Notes: generated by a model from the sequence alone, not told the origin. DNA of 64,000 nt from Candidatus Bathyarchaeota archaeon (GCA_963768425.1 CAVYHV010000014.1:256001-320000), one strand, 5' to 3'; positions 10,018 through 28,886 are shown, numbered from the stretch's first letter. Made by a program: numbers and translations.

Positions 10018-12685
10018 TTATGGGTGTTTTCTTGTGACTAGGACTGCGACTATGGCGATGCCTACGATGAAGACAATGATCATTGCGACGACTGCGTACA
10101 TGACTGTTGTGTTTGAGGCTAAGCCGCTAAGAGGCGTTGCTGTTGGTGCTGCTGTTGCTGCTGGTGAGCTAGGCATAGAATCCTGTGGAGGAAGTGGATC
10201 CAAAGTACGATTGTGTGCCTGCGAACACTGCGTAGATGGTGTAGTTGCCGGCTATGTCTGGTTTCCATGTGAATGAGTAGTCGCCCAAGCCATTTGTTGT
10301 TGTTGAGCCGATTGTTCGGTAGTTGCCGTTGGAATCTATGACCGCGAAAGTCACTGGAACACCAGTTACGTTGTGTGGCTCCGGCTGCTGCATGTAAACA
10401 GACTCCATAAACTGAGACATGCTTGCGTCAGAAACGCATGGTAAACCGTTGGGGAAGTTTGCTACAACTGCTTCTTGCTGAGAGCCTGCAGAAACATCCA
10501 TGACTGTGCCAGTTATCGTTATCGGTGTGGCTGTTGTCACGCCAATGTCAGGTGCCGAAATGGTAGTTTTACTTGGTCCCATGCCGTAGGCATATATCTG
10601 ATTGTCATAAGCGTTTAGTGTTGTCATGATGCCGTCTGAAATGGCAGGAGCGGTGGTAACGTCAAAAGCGTCTATGCTCCATACAATTTGTCCGTTGGTT
10701 ATGTTCAAAGCCAGTTGTTGCGCACCATGGAATAGCGGCGGACTGTACATGTGACCTTCAGGAACGAATAGCTTACCATCAGCGACTGTACCAACATTGA
10801 AGGTCCACAGAGGTTCTACACCGTATGGTGATTCATACCCACCACTCGGAGTATGATAATGCCAGTTGACAGCTCCGGTTGCAAGGTTAATGGAATAAAC
10901 GTCTCCGCCGTATAGCCATATGTAAATTGTGCCGTTAGCGATAACATCGTTAGCTCCGAGAGAATCGAAAGGATTAGCACTTGGAAGCGTTACAGGCCCC
11001 CAAAGCTCCTTCCCCGTAGTGACACTGTACCCGCTAGCTGATAAGGTAGCCAAAGCCATTTCCACTTCAACGCCGTCTCCTGTCCAGGTGCTGGTGCCTA
11101 TGATTGAACCTATAATTGAGAACGCTGGTTCAGTTCGATTAGTTATCCATAACTGTGCTCCTGTGGCTGCGCTGTAACCTGCTTCAATCTGCCATCCAGG
11201 CTGATAGAACAATGCTGTGACCGATTCCGCTGTGGCTTCAGTCATCAATACCACGCCACTTGCAATTGCGTAGATGCCAAGTCCATATAGACCGTTTGCG
11301 TAGTCAATGAGCGGCGAACCCGAAAGCGTTGCTGCTAATGGGGCTGACCATTGTATGCCTAAGCTGAAGTCAATGACTGCATCCTGTGGGGGTCGCCACA
11401 TCCAGTTATCTGCTACTGGTGGACCGCCATAGGAGTTGGGAACTGCAAGGTTGATGCATCTAGTAGAGTTCCACATATCCAGCGTATTGTCGGTGCCGTT
11501 GACGTAGTAACCTATCAGATCTCCTCGCTCATCAGTCGTAAGTGGTATGCCATACCCGCTAGATGTTGAAGGAGTGTTGGAAATGGTCAGAATATAGTTG
11601 CCTGTCATGGCGTCCCACATCTCTAAAGAATTGCCCAGACTGGCTCCTAGATTTTCATACTCGACTGGTGAGCCAAGAGGTTGGCTCCAAAGGTATGCGA
11701 GGGCTCCGTACTGGTTTGGCACGACCATGTTGAGTATTTGACCGCATCTTAATACTTCGGTGGTGTTTTTGGTCCATAATGTTTGTCCGGTGCTTAAGTC
11801 AACAGCAGCCCAACCCGCCGGATTAGCTGCGCTACCTGGATATATCGTGTAATATAGGATGCCGTTCATGATTATTGGTGCAAATTTGGGTTCATATTGC
11901 GAGGTTGCGTAGAAGTTGGCGCTTTCGCCGCCCCCGAATTCTCCGCCGATTGTGCCTCCGAAAGCCTCAGGTTTTGTCCACAAGATATGTGCAGTGTTAG
12001 GCGCGGTGGTATAAGGGTTGTAGTTGCCGGTAGTGTTGTACATTCCAGTGTTGGCGAATGCTGATTGTCCAGTTCCTAGCCAGTTTCCGGCGATAGAGTA
12101 CCAATTGCTGTTCATAGCGTAAATTGGGCGCGTCCAGTAGGTTGCCGGAAGAGGAGTTACGGGCGCACCGCCTATCGGTTGCTGTTGAACTGTGACTGTA
12201 AATTTGTTGCTGGAGCTTGGCTGATAGTAGTCGCCTATGAAAACGTTCGCGAAAGGTCCCGAAGATGGAGTCCCTGGAGGGAGATTGTTGCCAGCGAGTG
12301 TTTCGCCACCAAAGGACATCTGGAAAGTGTAGTTACCGGTTGTCGATGGTACAAAGGTTGTTACTGTTCCGCCAGTCGCATCGGACGTAAAAGACCCTAA
12401 TGTTGAAGTTGTTCCATCAGGCTTTGTGACTGTAACTGTTAGGTTTTGCCATCTGTCACCGTACTGACCACTCGCAGTAGGTGGTGGTTGATTGACCCAG
12501 AAGTTAACATTAACTTTTTGTCCGACACCGATTGGATTTGGTGAAACGCTTATGAAAGAATAGGTTACGATATTCCAAGCAGGCGTATGTGCATTGGCGC
12601 TCGGCAAAAGTAGGGTTGATGCCCCCATCGAAATCATCAGTAATATAGCAATCGAAATAGCTCTTGCTTTATGTAAAAACTTCAT
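10018..12685 (-). CDS. Large secreted, C-terminally anchored PQQ-type beta-propeller protein, copy A (frameshift at ~10172)
   Basis: Signal peptide, Ig-like N and C domains, repeated A.D..TG..LW blades, EGHMYSPP motif; Thr/Pro linker and TM tail continue in ORF 10018-10203. Confidence 0.85.
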
Positions 12686-12817
12686 TTTATTCATCATCCT
12701 TTTATTGCTTTTGTTAGCGAATAAAATATGATGTTTCACCTTATAAGTGAATTACAGAAAACGAAATACATCATAAAAAATTTAGTTCTAATGTTAAAAA
12801 AACAAGTAATCGCCCAT

Positions 12818-13306
12818 CTACCGATCACATGTTAGAGTGAAGTAAGGGTTTTCTTCTGCGTCGAAATTAAACTCTGATGGAATCGACCACTCTCTGTTCG
12901 TAAACAATAATACATCTATGTTTAGGATTCCGCGAAGGTTTTGGAGATAATGAATAATTTCGTGGAATTCTTCATAACTCTCAAGATAAGCCTCGATGTA
13001 AAATTCATAATCTCCCCACATTTCTCCAATAAGAAAAGCATACGGAGCATCTACAAGCTGACTCTTAAGGACTGCACAGGTTGACTCATTATTAATCTTG
13101 ATAAGCAGACCACAAAGCTCTTGAAAACCACAAGCTCGAAAATCTAAGACTACGGTTGAGTGCAAGATAACGCCATCATCTTGCAGTTTCTTAAACCTTC
13201 GGAAAACAGAATCAACCCCGATACCCAACTTTTTGGCAATTTTCACAAAAGGCATCCGAGCATCCTTTGAGAGAATACTAAGTATTTCAAAGTCTATATT
13301 ATCCAA
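12818..13306 (-). CDS. Lrp/AsnC family regulator
   Basis: DxIDFEILSILSKDARMPFVKIAKKLG HTH; GDYE RAM domain. Confidence 0.9.
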   Translation of the reverse strand: MDNIDFEILSILSKDARMPFVKIAKKLGIGVDSVFRRFKKLQDDGVILHSTVVLDFRACGFQELCGLLIKINNESTCAVLKSQLVDAPYAFLIGEMWGDYEFYIEAYLESYEEFHEIIHYLQNLRGILNIDVLLFTNREWSIPSEFNFDAEENPYFTLTCDR

Positions 13307-13769
13307 AAGGTTTATCCTCCTTAAGTAGATGAGCGTTGAGCGACTTATAGTTATAATAAAACGTCCTCTTTACACTAATCCTGACGTCAAGCACAGCAGG
13401 ATGTTGCTTTATCAATTCCTTGAATTTGTGTACATCAATCAAGTTTTTGGCATCCATGATTGCAAGCATATTGTATTGACCAACGGTCCTGTAGCTTACA
13501 ATCAAAGTGTCTTTGATTCTTAACCCATTGACGTATGTCGCAACTTCCTCAAGTCTCGAATCAACAACTCTTATTTCAAATCCAGCTGAATGAGGAAAAC
13601 CTATTTTTGAATAATCTAGCACAAGCGTAGAACCCTTGATTATTCCCTTTCTCACCATTTTAGTATAACGTGCTTGAACAACCCCCGGCTTTGCATTTAT
13701 TATTTTAGCAATGTCCGAAAAAGTCATTCTTGCATCTTTTTGCAACTCAAATATTATTTTGCAATCCAA
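13299..13769 (-). CDS. Lrp/AsnC family regulator
   Basis: LQKDARMTFSDIAK; VGQYN. Confidence 0.9.
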   Translation of the reverse strand: MDCKIIFELQKDARMTFSDIAKIINAKPGVVQARYTKMVRKGIIKGSTLVLDYSKIGFPHSAGFEIRVVDSRLEEVATYVNGLRIKDTLIVSYRTVGQYNMLAIMDAKNLIDVHKFKELIKQHPAVLDVRISVKRTFYYNYKSLNAHLLKEDKPFG

Positions 13770-13912
13770 AGAGTCAAGGCGAGACAGGCAAACAACCCCT
13801 ATTCACTTAATTGTGAGACAGAGTGATGCGCTTACCAATTAATATTCTTGCTGAACCTTAAATTATTAATTTAGCCAAAGCTTGCAAAAATAGGTCACTC
13901 TTTTGTTTCTGT

Positions 13913-14033
13913 GGTTTTGCTGAGGCTCCGGAAACTAAGGAAGAAAAGTTTTTTCTTTAGGAGAAAAAAGAAAAATGCAAACTCTTCAATTGCAGCTATT
14001 TCGAATGTAACCAGAGCCTTCTCAGCCACCATT
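13913..14033. repeat. Conserved ~120-bp non-coding element, copy 2
   Basis: Similar to 9826-9938; sits at the junction between the two modules. Confidence 0.85.
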
Positions 14034-14092
14034 TTAGGCATCTTCAAATTTAGACTAAAAAAGGGAGGGAAAATAGTTCCCATTGTTTCACT

Positions 14093-16765
14093 TTAAGGGT
14101 GTTTTCTGGTGACGAGCATTGCAATTAGGGCGATGCCTACGATGAAGACAATGATCATTGCGACGACTGAGTACATGACTGTGGTGTTTGACGCTAAGCC
14201 GCTGAGTGGTGTTGCTGTCGGTGCTGCTGTTGCTGAAGGCGCATTAGCGAGGAAAGCTGTTTGGGCGGATGAGCCGTAATATGACGATGTGCCTGCGAAT
14301 GTGGCGGTGACAGTGTAGTTGCCGGCTATGTCAGGCTTCCAATTGAGGCTGAAGAAGCCGCTTGCGTCTGTTTTGGTTGTGCCGATTGCTCTGTAGTTGT
14401 TGTTGCTGTCTAAGACGTAGAGTGTGACTGGAACTCCGGTTATGTTGGTAGGCATTGGTTGTTGCTCGTAAACGGCTTCCATGAACTGCGTCATACTTGC
14501 GTCGGATACGCATGGTAGGCCGTTGGGGAAGTTTGCTGCAACTGCTTCTTGGCTTGCGCCTGCTGAGATGTCAGTAATTGTGCCGTCAAGAACTATTGGT
14601 GCTCCAACCGTGGTAACAGGGGTCGGTGCCGTGACCGTGGTTTTGCTTGGCCCCATTCCCCATGCGTATACCTGGTTGTCGTAAGCGTTTAGAGTAGTCA
14701 TGATGCCGTCTGAAATAGCAGGTGCACTAGTAACGTCGAAAGCGTCAATGCTCCATACAACTTGCCCGTTGGTTATGTTCAAAGCCAGTTGTTGCGCACC
14801 ATGGAATAGCGGCGGACTGTACATGTGACCTTCAGGAACGAATAGCTTACCATCAGCGACTGTACCAACGTTAAATGTCCAAATAGGTTCTACGCCATAG
14901 GGCGATTCATAACCGCCACTTGGAGTGTGATAATGCCAGTTTACAGTTCCAGTTGCAATATTGATGGAATAGACGTCTCCGCCATATAGCCATATGTAAA
15001 TTGTGCCGTTAGCAATGACATCGTTAGCTCCGAGAGAGTCAAAAGGATTAGCACTTGGAAGCGTTACAGGCCCCCAAAGCTCCTTCCCCGTAGTGACACT
15101 GTACCCGCTAGCTGATAAGGTAGCCAAAGCCATTTCCACTTCAACGCCATCTCCCATCCAGTTGCTTGTGCCTACGATTGAGCCTATAATTGACCACGCT
15201 GGCTCTGTTCGATTAGTTATCCATAACTGTGCTCCTGTGGCTGCGCTGTAACCTGCCTCAATCATCCATCCCGGCTGATAGAGTGTGCTGTACCATTCCA
15301 CTGTAATTTCAGTCATCAGTATCACACCGCTTGCAATTGCGTAGATGCCAAGTCCATATAGACCGTTTGCGTAGTCAATGAGCGGCGAACCCGAAAGGGT
15401 GGTTGCAAGTGGGGCTGACCATTGTATGCCTAAGCTGAAGTCGATGACTGCGTCCTGTGGGGGTCGCCACATCCAGTTATCTGCTACCGGTGGACCGCCA
15501 GCAGAGTTGGGAGTTGCAAGGTTGATGCATCTAGTAGAGTTCCACATATTCAGCGTGTTATCGGTGGAGTTGACGTAGTAGCCGATCAAATTACCGTGAT
15601 CATCTTCCGTAAGCGCCGAACCACCAAGAGCCGAACCAAGTCCTGATGGAATGTCATTAATCGTAAGGATATAGTTGCCTGTCATGGCGTCCCACATCTC
15701 TAAAGAATTGACTGAACTCACTCCTAGAGGTCCCCATTCTACTGAGTTGCCAAGAGGTTGGCTCCACAGGTATGCGAGGGCTCCGTACTGATTAGGTATG
15801 ACTATGTCTAAGTATTTGACCACATCGTAGTACCTCAGTAGTGTTTTTAGTCCATAGTGTCTGTCCGGTGCTTAAGTCAACAGCAGCCCAACCCGCCGGA
15901 TTAGCTGCGCTTCCCGGATATATTGTATAATAAAGTATGCCGTTCATGATTATTGGTGCAAATTTGGGTTCATATTGCGAGGTTGCATAGAAGTTGGCGC
16001 TTTCGCTGCCCCCGAATTCCCCTCCGATTGTACCGCCGAAAGCCTCAGGTTTTGTCCACAAGATATGTGCAGAGTTGGGCGCAGTGGTATACGGGTTATA
16101 ATTACCAGTATCATTGTACATTCCAGTATTGGCGAACGACGATTGTCCAGTACCCAGCCAATTTCCTGCGATGGAGTACCAATTGCTGTTTTCAGCGCAT
16201 ATTGGTCGTGTCCAGTAGGTTGTCGGAAGAGGAGTTACGGGTGCACCGCCTATTGGTTGTTGTTGAACTGTAAGTGTAAATTTGTTGCCTAGAGCTTGGC
16301 TCATAGTAGTCACCGATGAAAACATTAGCGCCCAGGTCCAGATGTGGGAGTTCCAGGAGGCAAATTGTTGCCCGCAACGGTTTGTCCGCCAAAGAACATT
16401 TGAAAAGTGTAATTGCCTGCGGTTGAAGGTGTGAAGGTGGTTACTGTCCCGCCGGTTGCGTCGGATGTGAAGGATCCTAATGTTGAAGTTGTTCCGTCAG
16501 GTTTTGTGACTGCGACTGTTAGGTTTTGCCATCGGTCACCGTACTGAGCACTAGCTGTGGGTGGTGGTTGATTGACCCAGAAGTTAACATCAACTTTTTG
16601 TCCGACACCGATTGGATTGGGTGAAACGCTGATGAAAGAATAGGTCTGAATGTTCAATGCAGGTGTATGTGCATTAGCGCTCGGTAACAGCAGTGTTGGT
16701 GTTCCCATCGAAATTATTAACAAGACCGCAATCGAAATAGCTATTGTCTTATGTAAAATCTTCAT
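14093..16765 (-). CDS. Large secreted PQQ-type beta-propeller protein, copy B (three single-base insertions at ~16330, ~16290, ~15820)
   Basis: ORFs 16325-16885, 16192-16392, 15792-16325 and 14093-15823 join into a paralogue collinear with copy A. Confidence 0.85.
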
Positions 16766-16900
16766 TTTTTTCACAATCCTTTTTTGACAAGTAAGGTAAA
16801 CTATGACGTTTACCCTTATAAGCCTCCAAAAAAATGCGGAATATGACATAATAATGGCTATTGGAGTGTCAAAAATAAGGCGCAAAAGACCTCTGCAAAA

Positions 16901-17386
16901 TTATTCGTGAGTTTGGGTAAAGTAGGGAGCATCTTTCACATAAAAACAAGGGTCTGATGGAATTGGCAATTCTCTGCTAGTAAACAGCATTGTATCTATA
17001 TTCAAGACTCCTGTGATGTTTTGAAGATAACGAATGAGTTCGAGGAGTTCTGGATAACTCTTAAAATAGGATTCGATATAGAATTCATAGTCTCCCCACA
17101 TTTCCGCAATGAGAAAAGCGTTAGGGGCAGTCCGGAGCTTACTCTTGAGGACTTCTAAGTCGCATTCGTTACTGGTTTTTATGAGAAGACCACAGAGCCC
17201 TTCAAAACCGCAAGCTTGAAAATCTAAGACCACGGTTGAAAACAAGATAACACCGTCATCTTGCAGTTTCTTAAACCTTCGGCAAACGGAATCCTCTCCA
17301 ATCCCCAGCTTCTTCGCAATTTTTACGAATGGCGTCCTGGCGTCTTTTGAAAGAATGCTAAGCATTTCAAGGTCTGTTTTGTCCAA
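16901..17386 (-). CDS. Lrp/AsnC family regulator (paralogue of 12818-13306)
   Basis: SILSKDARTPFVKIAKKLGIG; MWGDYEF. Confidence 0.9.
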   Translation of the reverse strand: MDKTDLEMLSILSKDARTPFVKIAKKLGIGEDSVCRRFKKLQDDGVILFSTVVLDFQACGFEGLCGLLIKTSNECDLEVLKSKLRTAPNAFLIAEMWGDYEFYIESYFKSYPELLELIRYLQNITGVLNIDTMLFTSRELPIPSDPCFYVKDAPYFTQTHE

Positions 17387-17849
17387 TAGGTTTGTTCTCC
17401 TTAAGTAGTTGAAGATTGAGCGAATCATAGTTATAATAAAACGCTCTCATCACACTGATTCTGACTTCAAGAACCGCAGGATGTTGTTTTATCATTTCCT
17501 TGAATTTATGCACATCAATCAAGTTCCTCGCATCCATGACGGCGAGCATATTAAATCGACCCAAAGTCTTGAATTTGACGATTAGAGTATCCTCGATCTT
17601 TAAGCCACCTATGTATCTGTCAAATTCTTCAATTTTGGAGTCAACAACTTTTATTTCCAGCCCAGCGGAATAGGGAAAGCCTATTTTAGAATAATCTAAG
17701 GCAAGCGTGGACCCTTTGATTATGCCTCTTTTTACCATCTTGTTATACCGCATCTGCACAACCCCACGCTTTGCGTTCACTGCTATAGCAATATCAGAAA
17801 ATGTCATCCGCGCATCTTTTTGTAGCTCAAGTATTATTTTGCAATCCAA
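17367..17849 (-). CDS. Lrp/AsnC family regulator (paralogue of 13299-13769)
   Basis: LQKDARMTFSDIA; IKQHPAV. Confidence 0.9.
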   Translation of the reverse strand: MDCKIILELQKDARMTFSDIAIAVNAKRGVVQMRYNKMVKRGIIKGSTLALDYSKIGFPYSAGLEIKVVDSKIEEFDRYIGGLKIEDTLIVKFKTLGRFNMLAVMDARNLIDVHKFKEMIKQHPAVLEVRISVMRAFYYNYDSLNLQLLKENKPIGQNRP

Positions 17850-18190: not shown

Positions 18191-19393
18191 GTGGGACATC
18201 TGGGGATTGCGAAACAAGTGACAAAACAGTCAGAATTCCGTAAACTTGCCGCAAATATTACTGGACTTGACAGAGATGTCAAACTCATTGTTGCTTCGTA
18301 TCTTGTGTTCTATTTTGGAGACTGCCTTCTACATTTTCACTTTACCAGTTTATCTCAGACAATTGAGTGCAACCTCCTTGGAAGTTGGCGTATTCTATGC
18401 CTTGGATTGGCTAAGCAGCGGCGTTTCAATTCTTCTAGGCGGATACTTAATCACGAGAGTGGGAATCAAGAAAATCTTGATCATGAGCTCCTTGGTTTGG
18501 TTGCCCATGCCGCTTGCACTAGCATTTGCCTCTAACTGGACGCAAGTAGTTCTGCCGACGATCCTATACGGGACCTATCTGGGTTTCTCAGCAGTCTGTT
18601 TCTATCTCATAAAGGGTACAGTGAAGGGTGGGCGCATGTTAGCCTTCGGGCTATGGTCTTCATCGCAATCCCTCAGTTATATTATTTCTCCGTTAATCGG
18701 TGGAATTATAGCCTCAACGATTAGTAAACAAACTGTATTTCTGTTAGCTTTTGTCTTCTATTCACTATCCATCCTTCCACTCTTCTTAGTCAAGGGTTTG
18801 CATCAAAAAGGAGAGGAGGACTTACCTGCTGAGAAGGCACAGATGTTCCCAAAAATGGCACAAAAGTTTTTTTGCTGTCGATAGTCGTCTGCCTGGCTAT
18901 GTTTTTTCTCTGGACGATTTACCCCCTAATTCCTCAATTTGAAAACGAAGTATATCACCTAAACATATTCAATCTCGGAATTCTGGGAACGATGACATTT
19001 GCAGGGTGGTTTTTCTTTTCATTCCTGTTGGGGAGAATTGGAGATACAATCTCCCAGATGAAAGCTCTGACAATTGCATTATTTTTGAGTGGTCTATCTT
19101 TCGTTGCTATATTAGCCTTTCACAGCCTTACTTTGCTCGTTTTGGCATCTTTCTTTTCTGGAGCTTCGTATACCGTGCTATATTTGGCACCTGGAATCAT
19201 CGCGACAGCCGCAACCACGCAGTCAATGACAAAGTGGGTTTCCATTAGCCAATCAAGCGTTTGCTTCGCATCTTGCATCGGGGCACTAATTAGCGGAAGA
19301 ATTTATGAAGTCTGGATCTATCTACCATTCTTAATTGCCATCGCTGCCTTGACCACTCTGGCAATCATCACGATGAAAATCAGCGCGTGCTAA
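18191..19393 (+). CDS. MFS transporter (frameshifts at ~18325 and ~18870)
   Basis: About 12 hydrophobic helices over three ORFs; motif A-like GYLITRVGIK and GRIGDTIS. Confidence 0.8.
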
Positions 19394-20000: not shown

Positions 20001-20156
20001 TTAAAATTTAGTCCTTTGACGGCTAGCTTCAGTTTCCTCTTGTTGAAGGACATAGCGACCGAAGCAAACACGGCAGTAACCTGACTTGTTTTCTCTTGAA
20101 AGCTTTGTGCCGCAGCCTCCTTTGCAAAATCTTTTGCTTAGAATTTTCTGAGCCAT
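20001..20156 (-). CDS. Small Zn-finger protein (51 aa, not in ORF track)
   Basis: MAQKILSKRFCKGGCGTKLSRENKSGYCRVCFGR...; TAATG overlap with the GNAT stop. Confidence 0.65.
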   Translation of the reverse strand: MAQKILSKRFCKGGCGTKLSRENKSGYCRVCFGRYVLQQEETEASRQRTKF

Positions 20157-20691
20157 TAGGCTATCCTCTTTGGAGTATATTGTAGGGTTACTGTTAGGCG
20201 TCTTTTGGCGTTAGAGTTGACGAGTTCACGGTTTATTCGGCTGTCATTTCTTCCGCTGCTGCCATGACCAAACCGCTTAACGCTCCAGCCCTGCATCTTG
20301 CCGTGAATCAACTGTGGGTTTGAAGTCAAGATGTAGAAGGGAAGATCAATTTGGCTGGTGTAGAAGTCAGCCATGAAATTAAGTAGACGTCGACCGACGC
20401 CGATGCCTTGATAATCCGGAAGGACCACGAGGCGACTGACACGATAATAATTTGACCGCATATGCACATGCGCAATAGCTATGAAAGCAATTGGTTTATC
20501 ATCATATTTCGCCGTGTAACAGCGGACTCCGGCGCCAAGCTGCTCCGTGTTTAGATAATGATGTTCCCTAAAGACCTGCCATAAGGATAAATTGCATTTA
20601 TGCACCGATAGATTGAGGGCAGGGTGGGATCGTTTTTTTTTACATCCAAATAATTGAAGAATTCAGAAGAGTCCACGTTATAGACCCAGTC
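20156..20691 (-). CDS. C-terminal part of ABC-ATPase/GNAT gene: linker plus GNAT acetyltransferase
   Basis: WQVFREHHYL, RVSRLVVLPDYQGIGVG (acetyl-CoA motif), TSNP; joined to the upstream frame through an A9 run at 20633-20641. Confidence 0.8.
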
Positions 20692-22328
20692 GAGAGTGTG
20701 TGAAAAGTCTCTTTCTTTGCGGCTATTTACCGTTAACCTTAAATCTAGACTGGCTTTAGAGCAACAGAAAGAGCTGAAAAGCCATGAGCGAACACGTGAC
20801 AGGCCATTACAGAAAGCAATCAGTTCTCTTCCCAAACATTCTCGACGATTACGTCGACAAAGAGAACCCAGTACGATTCATTGACGCTTTTATAGATAGC
20901 CTCAACTTAGCGAAGCTCGGATTCAAACACTCAGTACTCGCAGACACAGGCAGACCATCGTATGATCCCTTAGACCTTCTCAAGCTCTACGTTTATGGAT
21001 ACCTCAACCAGGTGAGATCAAGCCGAAAATTGGAAAAAGAATGCCACCGCAACGTCGAAGTCATGTGGCTCATGAAAAAGCTTGCTCCCGACTTCAAAAC
21101 CATCGCCGACTTCAGAAAAAACAACGTCGACTGCATCAAAGGCGTATTCAAAGAATTCGTTTACCTCTGCAGAAGATTGGATCTTTACGGTGCTCAACTG
21201 GTAGCTATTGATGGAACCAAATTCAAAGCGGTCAATTCCAAGAGCAATAACCTCAACGAAAAAACGGTCGCTTTGAAGCTCAAACAAACAGAAGAAAAGA
21301 TAGCGGAGTACCTCAAAGAAATGGACCAAAACGATACAGCCGATTCATCTGAAGATGAAAGCGTCAATGCCGAAGAGCTCAAGGAGAAAATATGCAAGCT
21401 TGAAGAAGAAAAGCAACGATACGAGCAGATTCAAGATCAAATGGAAGCAACAGGCCAGAAGGAGGTTTCACTTGTGGATCCAGATAGCCGTTTGATGCGG
21501 GTAGATAGTCAAAGGCTGGATGTCTGCTACAACATTCAGACGTCTGTGGATGCGAAGCAGCATTTAATCGTGGATTACGATGTTATCAACAATTCGACTG
21601 ATCATCACCAGCTAGCGACTGATGCTAAGGCTGCGAAACAGGTGCTTGGCGTTGATCAGCTGGAAGTTTTGAGTGACAAAGGATTCTACGTCGCAAATGA
21701 CCTCGTTGAATGTGAGGAAGCTGGGATAACGGTGTTTATGCCGATTCCAGCTTTTAATCCTACTAAGAATGTCGGAGTGCCTGAGCGAGATTTTTGCTCT
21801 GGCAAGTTTGTCTATAATGTTAAGCGAGATGCGTATGTTTGTCCTGGCGGGGCTGAGTTGGAGCTTTTGAGGCGTAGTTATCGAGGAAAAGAGCAATGTT
21901 GGGGTGGTCTTTATGGGACGAAATTCTGTCTCTCTTGTTCTATGAGGAGTAGATGCACCAGAAACAAGCGTGGCAGACGCATGTTCAGGCCGGAATATCA
22001 AGACACTGTGGATAGGTTGAAGGCGAGAATTAGCAGTTCTGTTGGAAGAGCGAAGCTTCGTTTGAGGCGGGAAATAGTGGAGCATCCGTTTGGAACTATT
22101 AAGCGAGCGTTCAATCAAGGTTATTTGCTTTTGAAAGGGTTACGGAAGGTTAGGGGAGAAGTGGGATTTACTATGCTGGCTTATAATCTTAGAAGGGTGA
22201 TTAATATTTTTGGAGTTGGGACGCTAATGGATTTGATTAAGCCGTAAAAAAGTTGTTAAGAACAAACGTATCAAAGAGCTTGGGTAGGCAAATAATGAGG
22301 TTTTGGCTGTAAGTTTTGACACACTCTG
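20692..22328 (+). mobile_element. IS1182-family insertion sequence (1637 bp)
   Basis: Imperfect TIRs GAGAGTGTGTGAAAAGT / CAGAGTGTGTCAAAACT; 4-bp TSD AGTC at 20688-20691 and 22329-22332. Confidence 0.92.
20784..22247 (+). CDS. IS1182-family DDE transposase
   Basis: GRPSYDP, SSRKLE, PDFKTIADFR, AIDGTK, DKGF, VEHPFGTIK. Confidence 0.95.
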   Translation: MSEHVTGHYRKQSVLFPNILDDYVDKENPVRFIDAFIDSLNLAKLGFKHSVLADTGRPSYDPLDLLKLYVYGYLNQVRSSRKLEKECHRNVEVMWLMKKLAPDFKTIADFRKNNVDCIKGVFKEFVYLCRRLDLYGAQLVAIDGTKFKAVNSKSNNLNEKTVALKLKQTEEKIAEYLKEMDQNDTADSSEDESVNAEELKEKICKLEEEKQRYEQIQDQMEATGQKEVSLVDPDSRLMRVDSQRLDVCYNIQTSVDAKQHLIVDYDVINNSTDHHQLATDAKAAKQVLGVDQLEVLSDKGFYVANDLVECEEAGITVFMPIPAFNPTKNVGVPERDFCSGKFVYNVKRDAYVCPGGAELELLRRSYRGKEQCWGGLYGTKFCLSCSMRSRCTRNKRGRRMFRPEYQDTVDRLKARISSSVGRAKLRLRREIVEHPFGTIKRAFNQGYLLLKGLRKVRGEVGFTMLAYNLRRVINIFGVGTLMDLIKP

Positions 22329-22926
22329 AGTCAGGTTCAAGCCAATCTAAAATGTCACTGTGACAGCTGACAGCTATGAATTGCTTACCCGAATGTTTCC
22401 TTACAGCTTTGCTCACAGCTAGAGATCCTATTTGAGCAACGGTTCGGTCAACTGTTGAAGTGAATTCGTCGAAAACGATAAGGTTCTGAGGCAGGCAAAG
22501 CGCCATGGCTATGTCTACACGCATTTTTTGCCCCTGGCTCAAAACTGAGTAACTCTTCAACCAGGAAGGCGGTTCACTAAAGCCGCTGCTGCAAAGAGCA
22601 GAATCAATCTCTGTGGCGCTTAAGTTTTCGGGAAAATCATCCAAAAAAGAAGCCGATTTGTAACGGTCCTTTAAGTCAGCGTAATAAGCCCCTGGCCAAC
22701 AGTGCTTAGCTATACTTGTTTTGCCGCTGCCGCTTGAACCCACTATCGCGCCTATTTGCCACTGTAGGCCTTCAATCGGTATGTTTCCCCGGATGTGTTT
22801 TTCCAGCTTCACCTCTTTCAGATCATAAGTTCCTATGACACTCTGCACCCGGAAGGTTTCAGGAGCAAACCAAGTATGCGTAAAATCAAAGGACGGCACT
22901 ATAGATTCAGCACCTTCACTTTCCAA
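22329..22926 (-). CDS. N-terminal ABC-type ATPase of the IS-interrupted ABC/GNAT gene
   Basis: GSSGSGKT, LSQGQ signature, FDEF, SCH; WLEPD continues as WVY once the IS is removed. Confidence 0.85.
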
Positions 22927-23471
22927 CCCTTAGCAGATAACTCATCAAACCGCTGCTTCTGTTCAGACTCATCCTTGCAGTCAATAATGAGCTCCCAGGT
23001 CTCGGGAACAATCATACTGCCGCCCCCTTCATGCAATTCTCCAGGCAACTTCTCACCGATCGCAGCCAACAAAGACTCAAGATCGTCCTTGGCGCCCATA
23101 TCGATAATCTTGAAGTCCTCAGATTCATCCATTTTCCGGTTATGCTTACCCTTCAACTTGTTAGTGATCTGGCGAAGCATACGCCTATCAACATCAGACA
23201 GCTTAAGACGTAGCACCGGAGCAAAATATTCTCCGTGATTCTTGCAGACATCAACACGTTGCTCGCCATCCGCGAAAACGCCGTCTCTATCGGCAACTAC
23301 AGGATAAACCCAGCCGAATTTCTGAAGGCTGCGCCAAATTTGCTCCTGCTGCTTCAATGTCATCTTATTCGGATTCTGCTCATCAGATTTCAATAGACGA
23401 ATGTCTGCAATCAGAGGCAAATACGCCTCCGGAACTTCAATTGTTGTCTTCTCTTTAGTGCCCTGAGCCAT
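22899..23471 (-). CDS. ParB/Srx-like N-terminal domain protein
   Basis: NPNKM...SLQKFGWVYPVV...DGEQR; C-terminal C..E.EQ motif of phage ParB-like proteins. Confidence 0.75.
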   Translation of the reverse strand: MAQGTKEKTTIEVPEAYLPLIADIRLLKSDEQNPNKMTLKQQEQIWRSLQKFGWVYPVVADRDGVFADGEQRVDVCKNHGEYFAPVLRLKLSDVDRRMLRQITNKLKGKHNRKMDESEDFKIIDMGAKDDLESLLAAIGEKLPGELHEGGGSMIVPETWELIIDCKDESEQKQRFDELSAKGWKVKVLNL

Positions 23472-23681: not shown

Positions 23682-24386
23682 CTATGGTCGGAGAGCCTCT
23701 TCCAAATTCGCGATTAAACGCAGCACATCTGCAGTTTCCGCTTCTGCCTCAATTTTGTAAATCTTTTTATAGAATTCACTTGGTTCGTCAACTGAAATCT
23801 GAAATGCGGCACCCTCCATTTGTCTTAACAAACGTGCAATGTCTGAAGTGGAGTAATCTTTGCCAAGTTTGTTGAAGTCGGGTTTCAGCACGAAAACGGT
23901 CCTTAGCAGTACTGGGTGTATTTCAGCTTGAAAATCTTTCTTTTCGAAGATTTCAGTACTTTTCTCCAAAAAATGAACATATTTTTCATTGAGAAAACTT
24001 TTTTGATCTATATTCAGCTTTGCTTTTAAGGTTGTACTGTAATACCAGCTCTCAATATTATTACCAATTCTCTCAAACAAGCTTTCTTTGTCAATTTCAT
24101 CTATTATTTCCTCTACTAACTTTTTCGCTATTTCGGTCTTTCCTATGATATCAGCTTGAATACCTCTCTCGCCTATTTCGAGCTGGACAATGGTTCCCGT
24201 CTCGCTTTTGAAGTTAAATTTGCCACCACAAAGCGTTATTGTATAATCTATGTTTTCTGGTACATTCATTTCTGAGAAGCTGTACTTCTCTTTGATCCGA
24301 TCTAGTACGCCAGATTTTGACACGTATTCTTTGTTTATTAGGTCTGTTGTTGTTCTGACTATTACTCTGCCTAGAAATACTTCCAA
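23682..24386 (-). CDS. Hypothetical protein
   Basis: 234-aa AT-rich ORF directly downstream of the ArsR-like gene. Confidence 0.65.
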   Translation of the reverse strand: MEVFLGRVIVRTTTDLINKEYVSKSGVLDRIKEKYSFSEMNVPENIDYTITLCGGKFNFKSETGTIVQLEIGERGIQADIIGKTEIAKKLVEEIIDEIDKESLFERIGNNIESWYYSTTLKAKLNIDQKSFLNEKYVHFLEKSTEIFEKKDFQAEIHPVLLRTVFVLKPDFNKLGKDYSTSDIARLLRQMEGAAFQISVDEPSEFYKKIYKIEAEAETADVLRLIANLEEALRP

Positions 24387-24397
24387 TTATTTCCATT

Positions 24398-25235
24398 TTA
24401 TTTCTCACCTTTCTTCTGAGTGATCACTAGACAACTGGTAGAAACAGGCTTAGCCATAAGAGGGTATTTAAAATATTTAGCCTTTAGAGAGTCTGAGAAA
24501 TGCCTGGATCTCAAAGGCAGAGTTGAACATTTGGATCTACGTCCGGTTAAACTGCCGATTCGTATCCTCTCATTTTGGTAACGTTGTAGCTGATCCAAAA
24601 CAATATTTAAGTGAGCTTTTTCGTCTTCGATTCTTGGTTTATAACCAAGATTCATCAATTCTCGCATGACTGCTTCTTTGAAATAGGTTTTGCCCACACC
24701 CATAGCGTCGCTGATAAGAAATACATTTTCACTTAAATCAATTGCAGCATCGGCTCCATGGCTCTTGCTCTTACCCTTAGCCTGGACGTAAACTATATTT
24801 TCACCCCAACCAACAGCGTCCTTTTCTTCAATTTCCGGCTCACTTGAAATAAATTCTGCAAATGCTTTAGGGTAACTAGGATTCATTGCCAAGCTAATTG
24901 CGTCCTCGATCTTTGGAGTGATGTCAAGGCTATGAAAAATATTTCTTATCAACGAGATTCCAAAGCCAGTAACGGCGTAAAATGAGTATTCCTCAGATTC
25001 TTTCTTTTTTGTGTAATAATTTTCAATTATGCCAGTTTCACTTAATATACGTAAATGATGTGAAAGCGTACTTGATTTTTCGCCTGTGCCTAGGCAAAGT
25101 TGCGAAAAAGAAAGCTCTCCTTTTTGCATCAAACCAGCTACTGAGCTAAGCGGGTGTCATCTCCTAGGCCTTAATAGCGGCTCTTAGTTCTTTGGGGATC
25201 TCGTTAACGTATTCGTAAAACTCTTTATACCCCAC
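24398..25235 (-). CDS. ArsR-like winged-HTH protein (N-terminus frameshifted at ~25140-25170)
   Basis: ELSFSQL...TLSHHLRILSETGII...Y.VT.FG; upstream frame IPKELRAAIK. Confidence 0.7.
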
Positions 25236-25267
25236 TTTTTCCAACTCGCATCCCTCTTTTTTTTATA

Positions 25268-25296
25268 GACTTAAGTCAATTTTTTTCGACTTAAGT
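25268..25296. promoter_or_regulatory. Tandem palindromic operator-like sites GACTTAAGT(C)
   Basis: Copies at 25268 and 25288 (20-bp spacing), next to the minus-strand TTTATAT of the ArsR-like gene. Confidence 0.55.
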
Positions 25297-25356
25297 AGAT
25301 ATAAAATTACATATAAGCTTTATGCCAAACGCGGGTATATACTTGTTGGTGAACCG

Positions 25357-25890
25357 TTGAGTAGATGGACCAGTTTTGTTGGCAGTTGGATCCAAGGCTT
25401 TCATACCTACAAACCAATAATGGAAATAACAATATATGGTTCATATTTTCCTCAAAAGGAAAAAGATTTCTTAATTCGATTGAAAGAAGCCCTTATTTCT
25501 GAGGGTTACACTTCAACTCGCATTGTAGAAGACCGCCCAAGCAATGGCCTTGATGAATTCCAAGCCAGCAAGGCAAGTCTCGAATTTTCGGACATTAACT
25601 TCTTGGTGTTTACTTTTGGTGGAAAGCGACTAGGAGTAGTAAGAGAACTGGCGCATTGCACCAGCTCGATCACGATGACTGACCGACGCTGGAGATGCGT
25701 TCTCTGCTACGAGGTCAAAGGCAATCGTTCAGCGCTGCCGCCTCTGAGCACAAAAGAAGTTGAAAAACTTCACATGTCAAAAATTAGACAGATTCAATTT
25801 AGCGACGAAACGCAATTACAAAAAGCTATGATAGGTATTTCCTGGAAATACCTCAACGATTTGGCGGAGGAACTTCGCTCCAGAAGATGA
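25357..25890 (+). CDS. TIR/NDT-like Rossmannoid protein (start probably ~25420)
   Basis: IYGSY...LKEALISEGY...SDINFLVF...GVVREL (conserved Glu position). Confidence 0.55.
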   Translation: MSRWTSFVGSWIQGFHTYKPIMEITIYGSYFPQKEKDFLIRLKEALISEGYTSTRIVEDRPSNGLDEFQASKASLEFSDINFLVFTFGGKRLGVVRELAHCTSSITMTDRRWRCVLCYEVKGNRSALPPLSTKEVEKLHMSKIRQIQFSDETQLQKAMIGISWKYLNDLAEELRSRR

Positions 25891-25930
25891 TGCAAATAAC
25901 AAAAAAAGAAGGAATAAAATGTCCCTTGGA

Positions 25931-27124
25931 TTAGCTGTTACGTTCATCACCTTCAATATCCCCATGCGTGCGCGTTTTTGCAGCGTATTTAATTTCATCA
26001 ATGTAGCTGTCTAACGAGACATTATCAGCTGATGACACTTTTGTTAAATGCCTTTCTTTCATTAGTTTTAGAATTTTCTCAATTAATAAAAGCAATGAAT
26101 CCCTTGCTTGACGAGTTTCAGGTGGTTTGCATTGTGGCATATTTCCATGTGCTATTGCGGATCTATCATCGTATAAGGTTTTAAATGTTTTAACCGTCTC
26201 TAACCTTCCAGCGAGGTCATCGCTTAAAAGAAACGCGGCTTTTTCAGAAAATTTCCATCTCAGCACATTCTTTTCTCCTTCGCCAATAAGTAAATTCTCG
26301 ATGGCCGCCACATAATAAAAGAGCTCTTGGTCTTCTGATGAAAAATTTCTCCCAATTCTGTAGAAATGAAGAGCATTAAGTATTCTTTTCTCTAAATCAC
26401 AGGAAGGATTGACCACAAGTTTACTCAGCCTATCGATTAGTTCTTGCTCGACTTTATCAAAATGATATATGTCAAGCTCAACTCCTAACGGAGTAAACGA
26501 TACCGTACGTTCACTGGATATTTTCGAGATAACGTATTGAGGTAACGTAAGCTTAATGTGGGGACGCAGAATTCGCAGTATATCTACCGAGGCTTCGGCT
26601 TTTTGGAGTGCTTTTTGCTGAATAATAAAATTACCCATCCCTGACTCGCTAACTTTGAGCCAGTAGCCAACGTTTGGATCTTTTGGCACGACCATCTCTT
26701 GGAGGAAGGAGGTTTGGATTCTCTCTCGGTCAGTTTTTACTTTTCCAACTCTTCCGTTGGCCAATCCCACGGCAAAGTTTTTCACAAGTATTGGAAGGGC
26801 TTCAAAATTCTGTAATTTACCGTGACCTATCTTGTAATTATTGGGAAATCCAAGTAATTGCGGCAACTGAAAATAAAAATAAGTTTCTTTGTTTTTCAAA
26901 ATCTTATCAATTGATGTTTGAAAGTCTAACTCAGATTGTATGTCGTACTGCAAGTGAAATAACAGGAAAGATAACTCCATTGGATCAATAATATGATCCA
27001 ATTTGAGAGCAGTTACTTGTTGCTCTATTTTGTATAGAGCTTCATTGTACATAGATGGGTTATCTTTAAACTGATAAACAGAATAGCACTCTTTCTTTAG
27101 CTCATCAATCTTTTTTGATGACAT
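25931..27124 (-). CDS. ApeA-like HEPN domain protein
   Basis: AAIENLL and LYDDRSAIAHG (RxxxxH). Confidence 0.8.
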   Translation of the reverse strand: MSSKKIDELKKECYSVYQFKDNPSMYNEALYKIEQQVTALKLDHIIDPMELSFLLFHLQYDIQSELDFQTSIDKILKNKETYFYFQLPQLLGFPNNYKIGHGKLQNFEALPILVKNFAVGLANGRVGKVKTDRERIQTSFLQEMVVPKDPNVGYWLKVSESGMGNFIIQQKALQKAEASVDILRILRPHIKLTLPQYVISKISSERTVSFTPLGVELDIYHFDKVEQELIDRLSKLVVNPSCDLEKRILNALHFYRIGRNFSSEDQELFYYVAAIENLLIGEGEKNVLRWKFSEKAAFLLSDDLAGRLETVKTFKTLYDDRSAIAHGNMPQCKPPETRQARDSLLLLIEKILKLMKERHLTKVSSADNVSLDSYIDEIKYAAKTRTHGDIEGDERNS

Positions 27125-27272: not shown

Positions 27273-27803
27273 CTAACCTAAATCTTCCTTTCTCGCACTA
27301 TATGACTCCACTGCGAAACCTGTGAGTGCCCAATGCCACCCTCTCTGCTCCGCAATGTGCTCTCCAAATTCCTTATCGAGCCGCTTATTCATTCTCAAGA
27401 TCCGTCGACTAATTTGGTATCGTGTAACCTTGAATCGGGCGAGCTTCGCAGCTAAGTCTTTTGGTAACAAACCTGGAGAGCCTGCTTCAAAAAGAAGTCG
27501 CAGAATTTCTTGGTCAGCCTCATCTTTACAAGCCACACGTTCAATTAGTGACTGCTCAAAATTGAAAGAATCTTTTAGGCCAGCAAAGATAGTGCGTAGC
27601 ATAAGCTTAACCTCTTCAACTTCTGCCAAGGTTTGCTTGAGAAGTTGCTGATTATACTTCAAACGGCCAATCTTATCGCTTTGACTGCGCTTCTTTTTGG
27701 CACTTTGAACAGGTTTTTCGGCACTTTCCACATCAGAATGCACACTCCAAGAATTCTTGTCCATCAACTGATGGCAAAACTGACAATGGGTAGTCAGGAC
27801 CAA
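27273..27803 (-). CDS. Hypothetical winged-helix DNA-binding protein
   Basis: ILRLL...LPKDLA...RYQISRRI..MN...GWHWALT. Confidence 0.6.
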   Translation of the reverse strand: MVLTTHCQFCHQLMDKNSWSVHSDVESAEKPVQSAKKKRSQSDKIGRLKYNQQLLKQTLAEVEEVKLMLRTIFAGLKDSFNFEQSLIERVACKDEADQEILRLLFEAGSPGLLPKDLAAKLARFKVTRYQISRRILRMNKRLDKEFGEHIAEQRGWHWALTGFAVESYSARKEDLG

Positions 27804-27921
27804 CTAATTGCAGAAAAGACACTTCCGAAAAGCATGGACTTTTCCCATGCATTAAGCTATGTACGAAAATTGCTTTTGAACATGTTTTAACAGCTATTAA
27901 TGCGATACCGCTTGCAAAAGG

Positions 27922-28886
27922 TCATGCGTCTATGAGACATACCTTTTGCCTCCCTCTGCCGAAGTCTTCAGCTGGTTCTTTGTTATTTTCAAAATCCACA
28001 AGCTTACCCAAAGCATCCGCAACCTTTGCTATACTCAAACCCATCTTCTCAAGCTTCTCGAGGCTGCAAGAAATCTTTGCTAAATCAGTTAGGACATTGT
28101 CCACTTGGCCCTCCAGCTTTTTCACGCGCTCAGGCATAAGCAAATACTCAACTGCTGCATCCCGACCCACATGATCAAGCTCGCCCTCATCTTCCCCAGG
28201 ACTGTCATCAATAACTCGTTTTGGAGTGCTCACCGTAAAATAACGATTCAGTAGATTTGCCACCGGATCATCAACACCTAGCTCGTGACGCTTGTTAATC
28301 TGGCCGTCACCCAACACGCAACCGTATTTGCTCATCAAACCCTTAGCGACCCGATCAGCCAAATTCTTAGCCAAAGTCACCAACTCCCCAGGACTACGAC
28401 CATAAAGCGTTTCGACATGAACAATCCAAGAAGTAGTCGTATGACGCACTTTCACACCCTGCTCCAAGCCCTAAAAGTGCAGTCCAATTCACCATCTCAA
28501 TTCTCCGAAAATCTCCAGCAGGATAAACCCCCTCACGCAAAACGGGAAACTTGAAGAAGCAACGATGCAAGCCGAAACACTCCGCTGCTGAACAGCACGC
28601 CCTCACATGATATGAGAAAGTTTTGACCTTGCTCTGTTAACTCATAGTCTACAAAGTTGCTGCGCTTTAACCTGTGAATTAAGCCCGCCTTCTCAAGCTT
28701 CTTTACGTAGTAGGCAACGTGCTGTTTCTTCCATCCACGTACACGCCCGATCTTGGCAGGATACATCTTAACCTCAATTCCTTTCAGAATGGGTAGGACG
28801 CGGGTGCGAACGGTAGAGAAGTCAAATTTGACTTTTGACTTTGAAGGCGAAATATTTTGACTTCTATCGTCCAGTTTGCTCTTCAA
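27922..28886 (-). CDS. wHTH + unknown domain protein (two frameshifts, ~28555 and ~28465); candidate replication protein
   Basis: MarR-like HTH, then LHRCFFKFPVL, then HELGVDDP...IDDSPG..GELD and a coiled coil across three ORFs. Confidence 0.6.

Follow-up and report, generated by a model that had tools for sequence, protein, structure and literature searches.

The window analyzed here, a 64,000-nucleotide (nt) stretch of DNA from Candidatus Bathyarchaeota archaeon (GCA_963768425.1, CAVYHV010000014.1:256001-320000), carries at positions 20001-23471 an operon in which a ParB-like gene precedes a gene encoding an ABC-type ATPase and a GNAT acetyltransferase domain, interrupted by an insertion sequence (IS). 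The main feature of the ATPase-GNAT gene, overlooked in an initial annotation of this DNA, is a conserved recoding site; the gene is not a simple fusion. Sequence statistics show it to be built for two predicted products: a short form, consisting of the ABC ATPase and a conserved hydrophobic tail, and a long form, in which the ATPase is joined to the GNAT. The window copy is dead, and its interest lies in the two-product design that it exposes. Our best explanation, to which we give a probability of about 0.63, is that it is an IS-broken copy of a viral three-part module, in which a recoded ATPase-GNAT gene and a ParB-like or small partner would acylate viral DNA; that the recoding itself is real we consider very likely.

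The ATPase and GNAT frames of the window copy part at an A9 run

The operon and the element inserted into it comprised the following features (aa, amino acids; ORF, open reading frame).

22899-23471, minus strand: ParB-like partner gene, 190 aa, with PHROG ParB matches; ParB N-domain, followed by a C-terminal domain of ~45 aa that ends in G..phi..phi.phi-COOH
22333-22899, minus strand: 5' part of the ABC-type ATPase, 189 codons; Pfam ABC_tran, E 4e-9; phrog_11143 positions 13-180, E 2.6e-44
20551-20691, minus strand: ATPase-frame linker and short-product tail; the stop sits under the GNAT HHY-L codons
20633-20641, minus strand: A9 recoding site, GTA AAA AAA AAC in the ATPase frame; a -1 shift enters the GNAT
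20156-20641, minus strand: GNAT domain, -1 frame; Pfam Acetyltransf_1, E 4e-10; phrog_11143 positions 200-349, E 1.2e-29
20001-20156, minus strand: four-cysteine Zn-finger-like ORF, 51 aa, overlapping the GNAT stop; accessory
20692-22328, plus strand: IS1182-type element, 1637 bp, with terminal inverted repeats and transposase domains
20688-20691, plus strand: target-site duplication AGTC, left copy
22329-22332, plus strand: target-site duplication AGTC, right copy

The IS was excised by script before the ATPase and GNAT frames were read. This restored the WLEPD/WVYNVD junction, as the initial annotation had stated; its further claim that removal of the IS joins the ATPase to the GNAT did not hold. 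The restored ATPase frame stopped at 20551-20553, with the GNAT in the -1 frame behind the A9 run at 20633-20641, and an in-frame fusion was therefore rejected. Without the IS, the predicted products were a short form of 235 aa and a long form of 367 aa, the first ~30 GNAT codons being dual-coded with the short-product tail. The search for intact homologs that had been proposed yielded intact-junction copies in the same genome and 110 homolog clusters. Five further cassette copies were found in the genome (C14b, C28, C9, C6, and C16), and the frame break was kept in the three with an intact junction (C14b, C28, and C9), in C16, and in relatives.

Slip motifs and the short-product tail across the homologs

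We examined 385 sequences, comprising 379 loci (duplicates included), the five genome copies, and the IS-less window. The ATPase anchor was present in 359, of which 38 were then excluded as truncated, internally shifted, or lacking W..F..HHYL (including C6, C9, and C16); the 321 loci kept were clustered at 80% ATPase identity into 110 clusters. The GNAT was in frame with the ATPase in 235 loci, -1 in 85, and +1 in one, corresponding to 72, 37, and 1 clusters, respectively. A search for the family in 251 genomes of the class was positive in 251/251, but so were 13 of 14 controls through generic ABC matches, and this tally was not used.

A phased X_XXY_YYZ heptamer with perfect re-pairing was present in 33 of the 37 -1 clusters, against 2.4 expected from ATPase-body windows, and its form varied (A_AAA_AAC, T_TTT_TTT, A_AAT_TTT, C_CCA_AAA, G_GGA_AAG). 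State changes were counted on a tree built by a quick method, on which the -1 state required nine changes, at least three of them forced by starred branches. The break was conserved in position and direction, the slip motif exceeded background, and an independent start in the second frame was lacking.

The in-frame genes carried a signal of the opposite sense at the same joint. An SD-like (Shine-Dalgarno, SD) GG[AG]GG followed after 3 nt by an in-frame [CG]TT[CT] was found in 40 of 72 clusters, compared with 0.44 expected from synonymous resampling, and in 0/37 of the -1 genes. Leaving the long frame here by a +1 shift would lead into the frame that the -1 genes read by default. Since related genes with an unbroken frame carry this reverse slip signal, both proteins seem to be needed.

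The tail of the short product pointed the same way. Its stop under the GNAT HHY-L motif was kept in 110/110 clusters (72/72 in-frame clusters with 35.9 expected, 37/37 -1 clusters with 20.4 expected), and the tail frame was open for the 22 codons before the stop in all 110, while the 22 codons after it were at chance level. In the in-frame genes, synonymous codon choice was biased toward spelling the tail G..L..I[TI]I-COOH at three positions (71/72, 62/72, and 68/72, against 35.8, 37.5, and 33.6 expected); no bias was seen at four further conserved positions (His/Phe/Tyr) taken as control, and the tail bias persisted in 18 representatives less than 60% identical. We conclude that both predicted products are under selection in both architectures.

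Four methanogen homologs (L118, L129, L131, and L137) were in frame with TCC TTT CGG or ACC TTT CGC at the joint, and their tail frame was open to the conserved stop; this joint sequence resembles a +1 motif known from RNA viruses.

The literature covered yielded no paper in which members of this family are described as recoded; outside it lay Iyer 2013/2009, which may mention the split, and one GeneTack supplement. No GNAT was mentioned in PMC3711429 (main text and two of three supplements, file 1 excepted), nor, by term look-ups, in 10.1101/2025.10.02.679949 or PMC10848311; in the first 300,000 of the 449,034 characters of PMC5009743, the two 'acetyltransferase' passages both concern polyamines.

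The GNAT domain, its partner, and their viral context

The fold of the fusion was predicted with high confidence, at a pLDDT (predicted local distance difference test) of 91.7 and a pTM (predicted template modeling score) of 0.87. As initially annotated, both the W..F..HHYL and the SRLVVLPDYQGIG motif were found, and the invariant GNAT residues were the W, the H-Y, and the beta4 Arg. From the catalytic set of Mom (W48, H58, Y59, R111, S124, D149, R151), the W, HY, and beta4 R were matched by eye; a profile alignment with Mu Mom aligned the HY only, with no clear counterparts of S124, D149, and R151. The Pfam Mom family PF25680 matched 3 of 32 members at best with E 0.008 and did not match the window GNAT, and the profile comparison with Mu Mom gave a probability of 0.3%, which is not significant. 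The Mom structure 8BV8 was absent among the fold-search matches listed, an absence that excludes nothing, and the ESM Atlas matches were viral GNAT clusters only.

According to the available part of PMC13219725, Mom uses Gly-tRNA, and its HTH-like (helix-turn-helix, HTH) insert (~175-209) is essential. The GNAT domain of the cassette, 143-164 aa long, showed no such insert in the alignment or the model and kept its acyl-CoA loop. The GNAT is a generic acyl-CoA type. Given the weak PF25680 matches, the lack of a significant match to Mu Mom, the kept loop, and the missing insert, it is not a Mom-family member, and the initial annotation was not sustained on this point. The kept loop also argues against a Gly-tRNA donor and a 6-NcmdA product. 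In PMC7824862 (available in part), which cites Iyer et al. 2013, the ABC-coupled GNAT is treated as a family separate from Mom and predicted to acylate a DNA base.

The DNA modification predicted by the initial annotation, apart from Mom membership, drew support from the gene context. Homologs sat before terminase genes, and in C14b and C16 the cassette directly preceded putative terminase, portal, protease, and capsid genes (labels read from sequence). The com gene lay directly upstream of the cassette in 22 of 110 clusters (5 confirmed by Pfam), at the place where Mu carries com-mom. In these Mu-like phages (L172, L209, L213, L271, L274, and 17 more), com was followed by a ~50-aa partner and by the ATPase-GNAT in place of mom; a formyltransferase lay downstream in 18 of the 22 and in 29/110 clusters overall, an arrangement that suggests a two-step acyl/formyl modification. 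In phage Jace (L175:3601-4023), an aspartate decarboxylase directly follows the fusion and could supply a beta-alanine building block. From this context, we regard DNA as the likely substrate of the GNAT.

A ~45-aa partner domain was encoded directly upstream of the ATPase in 101/110 clusters; 73 of these had it joined to a ParB N-domain, and in 28 no N-domain was detected (a few truncated). The pattern G..phi..phi.phi-COOH, which was derived from the same data in which it was counted, ended 62 of 101 partners and 89 of 110 short-product tails, compared with 0/103 long-product ends and 9/2252 genome ORFs.

Proposed mechanism

We propose a widespread module formed by a ParB-like or small partner protein and one recoded ATPase-GNAT gene. 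In this lineage, the gene would give the short form by default, and the fusion would arise through a -1 slip at the A9 run. Many bacterial phages would do the reverse, making the fusion by default and the short form by way of an A10 run or a prfB-like +1 signal. The short and long forms may assemble into an asymmetric ABC dimer that uses ATP turnover to handle DNA or to flip bases. On late viral DNA not yet packaged, the GNAT would transfer an acyl group from acyl-CoA to a base, and the acylated base would shield this DNA from host nucleases, while the C-terminal motif shared by the partner and the short form may dock on a common site.

For the slip at A9, RNA-polymerase slippage has a little better than an even chance, because the run measures 9-10 in all registers, no strong 3' RNA structure was found at A9 sites (z -1.0 to 1.8), and slippage on runs of 9 A/T is efficient (PMC5009743, available in part). 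Polymerase slippage also fits the A9 run found in the sole +1 cluster (L122). Ribosomal -1 shifting, at slightly below even odds, is favored by the A7 variants, in which the phased heptamer is followed at a distance of 7 nt by a stem (z -1.2 to -2.2; 4/35 loci), and by the fucA1 precedent considered below.

A broader and rather doubtful extension is that recoding arose anew on several occasions, as -1 heptamers, as slippage on A9/A10, and as a prfB-like +1 exit, and sets the subunit ratio of an acylation machine. The tail would in this case copy the C-terminal strand of the partner, and both would dock on the enzyme or packaging apparatus, tying modification to packaging in bacterial and archaeal viruses.

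Competing explanations

Several observations weigh against the proposed explanation. The nearest solved folds were small-molecule or protein acetyltransferases, none of them outstanding (among the matches listed, top Z 14.7, root-mean-square deviation 2.9, 139 aligned). The in-frame clusters without the complete +1 signal comprised 15 with an A10 run, which alone is weak against 8.9 expected, 11 with the SD part only, and 6 of the 72 with none of the scored signals. The clusters are related by descent and not independent, sampling was seeded by five queries, and the assembly is rich in frameshifts and indels in other cassette copies. A paralogous ~490-aa ATPase-GNAT family in Bathyarchaeia was a plain fusion in 8/8 cases viewed, so not every member of the wider family needs recoding. 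Finally, profile comparison found no homology between the partner domain and the short form, and the invariant Trp codon leaves no choice but Gly at tail position -9, which makes this part of the likeness to the partner C-terminus unavoidable. Since the G..phi..phi.phi-COOH pattern, moreover, was derived from the data in which it was counted, that likeness is a lead, not proof.

The paralogs of ~490 aa have FHYR in place of HHYL and are common across Bathyarchaeia (L357-L379); one copy, at C1:41361-42682, is in fragments and has a ParB-like gene as its neighbor.

The strongest competitor, which we hold to be clearly less probable, accepts the recoding and has the GNAT acylate a protein, small molecule, or tRNA (e.g., a head, terminase, or host protein). 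It would account for the generic acyl-CoA fold, for the RimI/Naa-type and small-molecule enzymes among the top structural matches listed, for weak sequence matches to RNA cytidine acetyltransferases (E 0.004-0.012), and for the packaging genes next to the cassette. It fits less well with the position behind com, which is that of mom in Mu, with the ParB-like partner, with the Mom-like W/HY/R pattern, and with the base acylation predicted in the literature (PMC7824862, available in part).

It is improbable that the A run serves phase variation at the DNA level, switching the GNAT on and off between virus clones. On the quick tree, nine Bathyarchaeia-type rows did nest in a well-supported (starred) clade of 27 rows with A-run joints in all three registers; however, run length hardly varied (28 distinct -1 junctions had A9, and all 51 in-frame junctions had A10), no cluster at 80% identity was mixed, many sites are not homopolymers, and the tail is still under selection in the in-frame genes.

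Still less credible are two separately started genes, with the internal SD as a ribosome-binding site. Several records annotate two genes, and in the window a GTG lies 8 codons ahead of the Trp, but this GTG is not conserved and the annotated second ORFs start after the invariant W..F..HHY. A separate GNAT start codon was absent in 26 of the 37 -1 clusters, a start with an SD was found in two, and 0/51 SD sites were followed by a start codon in the GNAT or tail frame, so an independent GNAT start was rejected. That the break stems from decay of a dead provirus or from a sequencing error in a homopolymer, as might be suspected for a remnant whose genome holds other copies with extra frameshifts, is highly improbable and, unless the assemblies share one error, refuted by the slip-motif counts and by a break that recurs at the same site and in the same direction in 85/321 loci, in many assemblies and the cultured phage P335, with one +1 case only.

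The insertion, the operon, and the proviral remnant

IS1182 elements combine a DUF772 + DDE_Tnp_1_6 transposase with terminal inverted repeats and a 4-bp target duplication, and all three were found in the element that interrupts the ATPase; we presume the family name from the Pfam domain pair. Its transposase ORF (20784-22247, 487 aa) is intact, and five related near-complete copies lie elsewhere in the genome. The insertion adjoins GGTTCAA, and 3 of the 4 other IS copies displayed have GGTTC or GGGTC beside one end.

Overlaps of 1 nt couple the ParB-like gene, ATPase, GNAT, and Zn-finger ORF, beginning with the ATPase GTG start, which overlaps the ParB-like stop. The upstream ParB-like gene and the soluble ATPase without a permease were correctly recognized in the initial annotation: the former reached E 1e-13 against PHROG ParB profiles, with no Pfam match, and in the latter Walker A, signature, Walker B, and H-loop were present and invariant. 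The operon holds no permease, and the major facilitator superfamily (MFS) genes at 18246-19393, a transporter split into two overlapping ORFs, lie on the opposite strand. The Zn-finger gene exists as the 51-aa four-cysteine ORF overlapping the GNAT stop; its place as a core part of the operon was not upheld. It had no Pfam or PHROG match, and homologs occurred in 7 other Bathyarchaeia-type loci (one in duplicate), including C28, whereas in most of the 35 such loci the next gene encodes a terminase-small-subunit-like HTH or winged HTH (wHTH) protein. A Com-like role was rejected on the same grounds of no family match and minority occurrence.

The closest named homologs of the window are from Bathyarchaeia. 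Upstream of the operon lie:

27273-28886, minus strand: proviral early genes common to other genome copies, including a wHTH gene at 27922-28886

This wHTH gene is split over three frames, and none of the C14b head-module proteins matched within the window, so by sequence the window copy is a decayed, IS-inactivated Bathyarchaeia proviral remnant, in agreement with the archaeal-element origin and inactivation first proposed. The proviral copies C28, C6, C9, and C16 contain many frameshifts in head and ATPase genes, from decay or assembly indels. Four cargo genes in the remnant (23682-27124; 234 aa, ArsR-type HTH of 244 aa, 177 aa, and 397 aa) had no family match except the HTH and are possibly defense-related. 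Elsewhere, at 10169-17849, a large secreted repeat protein is tandemly duplicated with an Lrp/AsnC-like regulator pair, the second repeat-protein copy (14093-16885) being split into three ORFs.

Comparison with known systems

Under the two-product reading of the cassette, a second product is probably hidden in hundreds of genes whose annotation is that of a plain fusion. DNA modification by an ABC-GNAT system may depend on both forms and the small partner together, so that expression of the fusion alone could fail. Cultured phages (P335, Axumite, Jace, EastWest, and LE4) cover each architecture.

The cassette agrees with the ABC-coupled GNAT family, to which it had been assigned at the outset, in that both halves match phrog_11143 and the locus is viral with a ParB-like neighbor; phage pT24, the example cited in PMC7824862, is a homolog. 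The available part of that source mentions neither recoding nor a short product, and neither a conserved tail nor a small partner domain; the window copy differs further in being archaeal and IS-broken. Phage Mu Mom (PMC13219725, available in part; PDB 8BV8) shares the GNAT fold and, by eye, the W/HY/R pattern, and cassette homologs take its com-adjacent locus in Mu-like phages. Besides its Gly-tRNA use and essential insert, Mom differs in having no ATPase, and the window GNAT (~155 aa) retains a QGxGxG loop missing from the Mom sequence.

The dnaX gene (PMC5009743, available in part) likewise produces short and long ATPase subunits, gamma and tau, by a mechanism and with a default product that vary by lineage, and that of Thermus slips on a 9-base run. 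The cassette differs from dnaX by its selected, dual-coded short-form tail (~27 codons) and its +1 signals. In prfB, the SD spacing is 3 nt. The cassette shares with the prfB +1 site (SD + CUU_U; PMC5009743) an SD-like GG[AG]GG 3 nt before an in-frame CTT plus pyrimidine; in the cassette, however, a sense codon follows instead of UGA, the shift leaves the long frame, and GTT is also used.

An archaeal parallel is the -1 site of Saccharolobus fucA1 (A-AAA-AAT; PMC8211752, available in part), likewise an A-rich heptamer joining two ORFs. In the same review, from 2021, the archaeal -1 cases comprise one demonstrated example and a few viral and predicted ones. With the cassette, a widespread family of recoded viral genes, many of them archaeal, would join these cases. 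The fucA1 site is strain-limited, whereas that of the cassette is conserved across a viral family with selection on both products.

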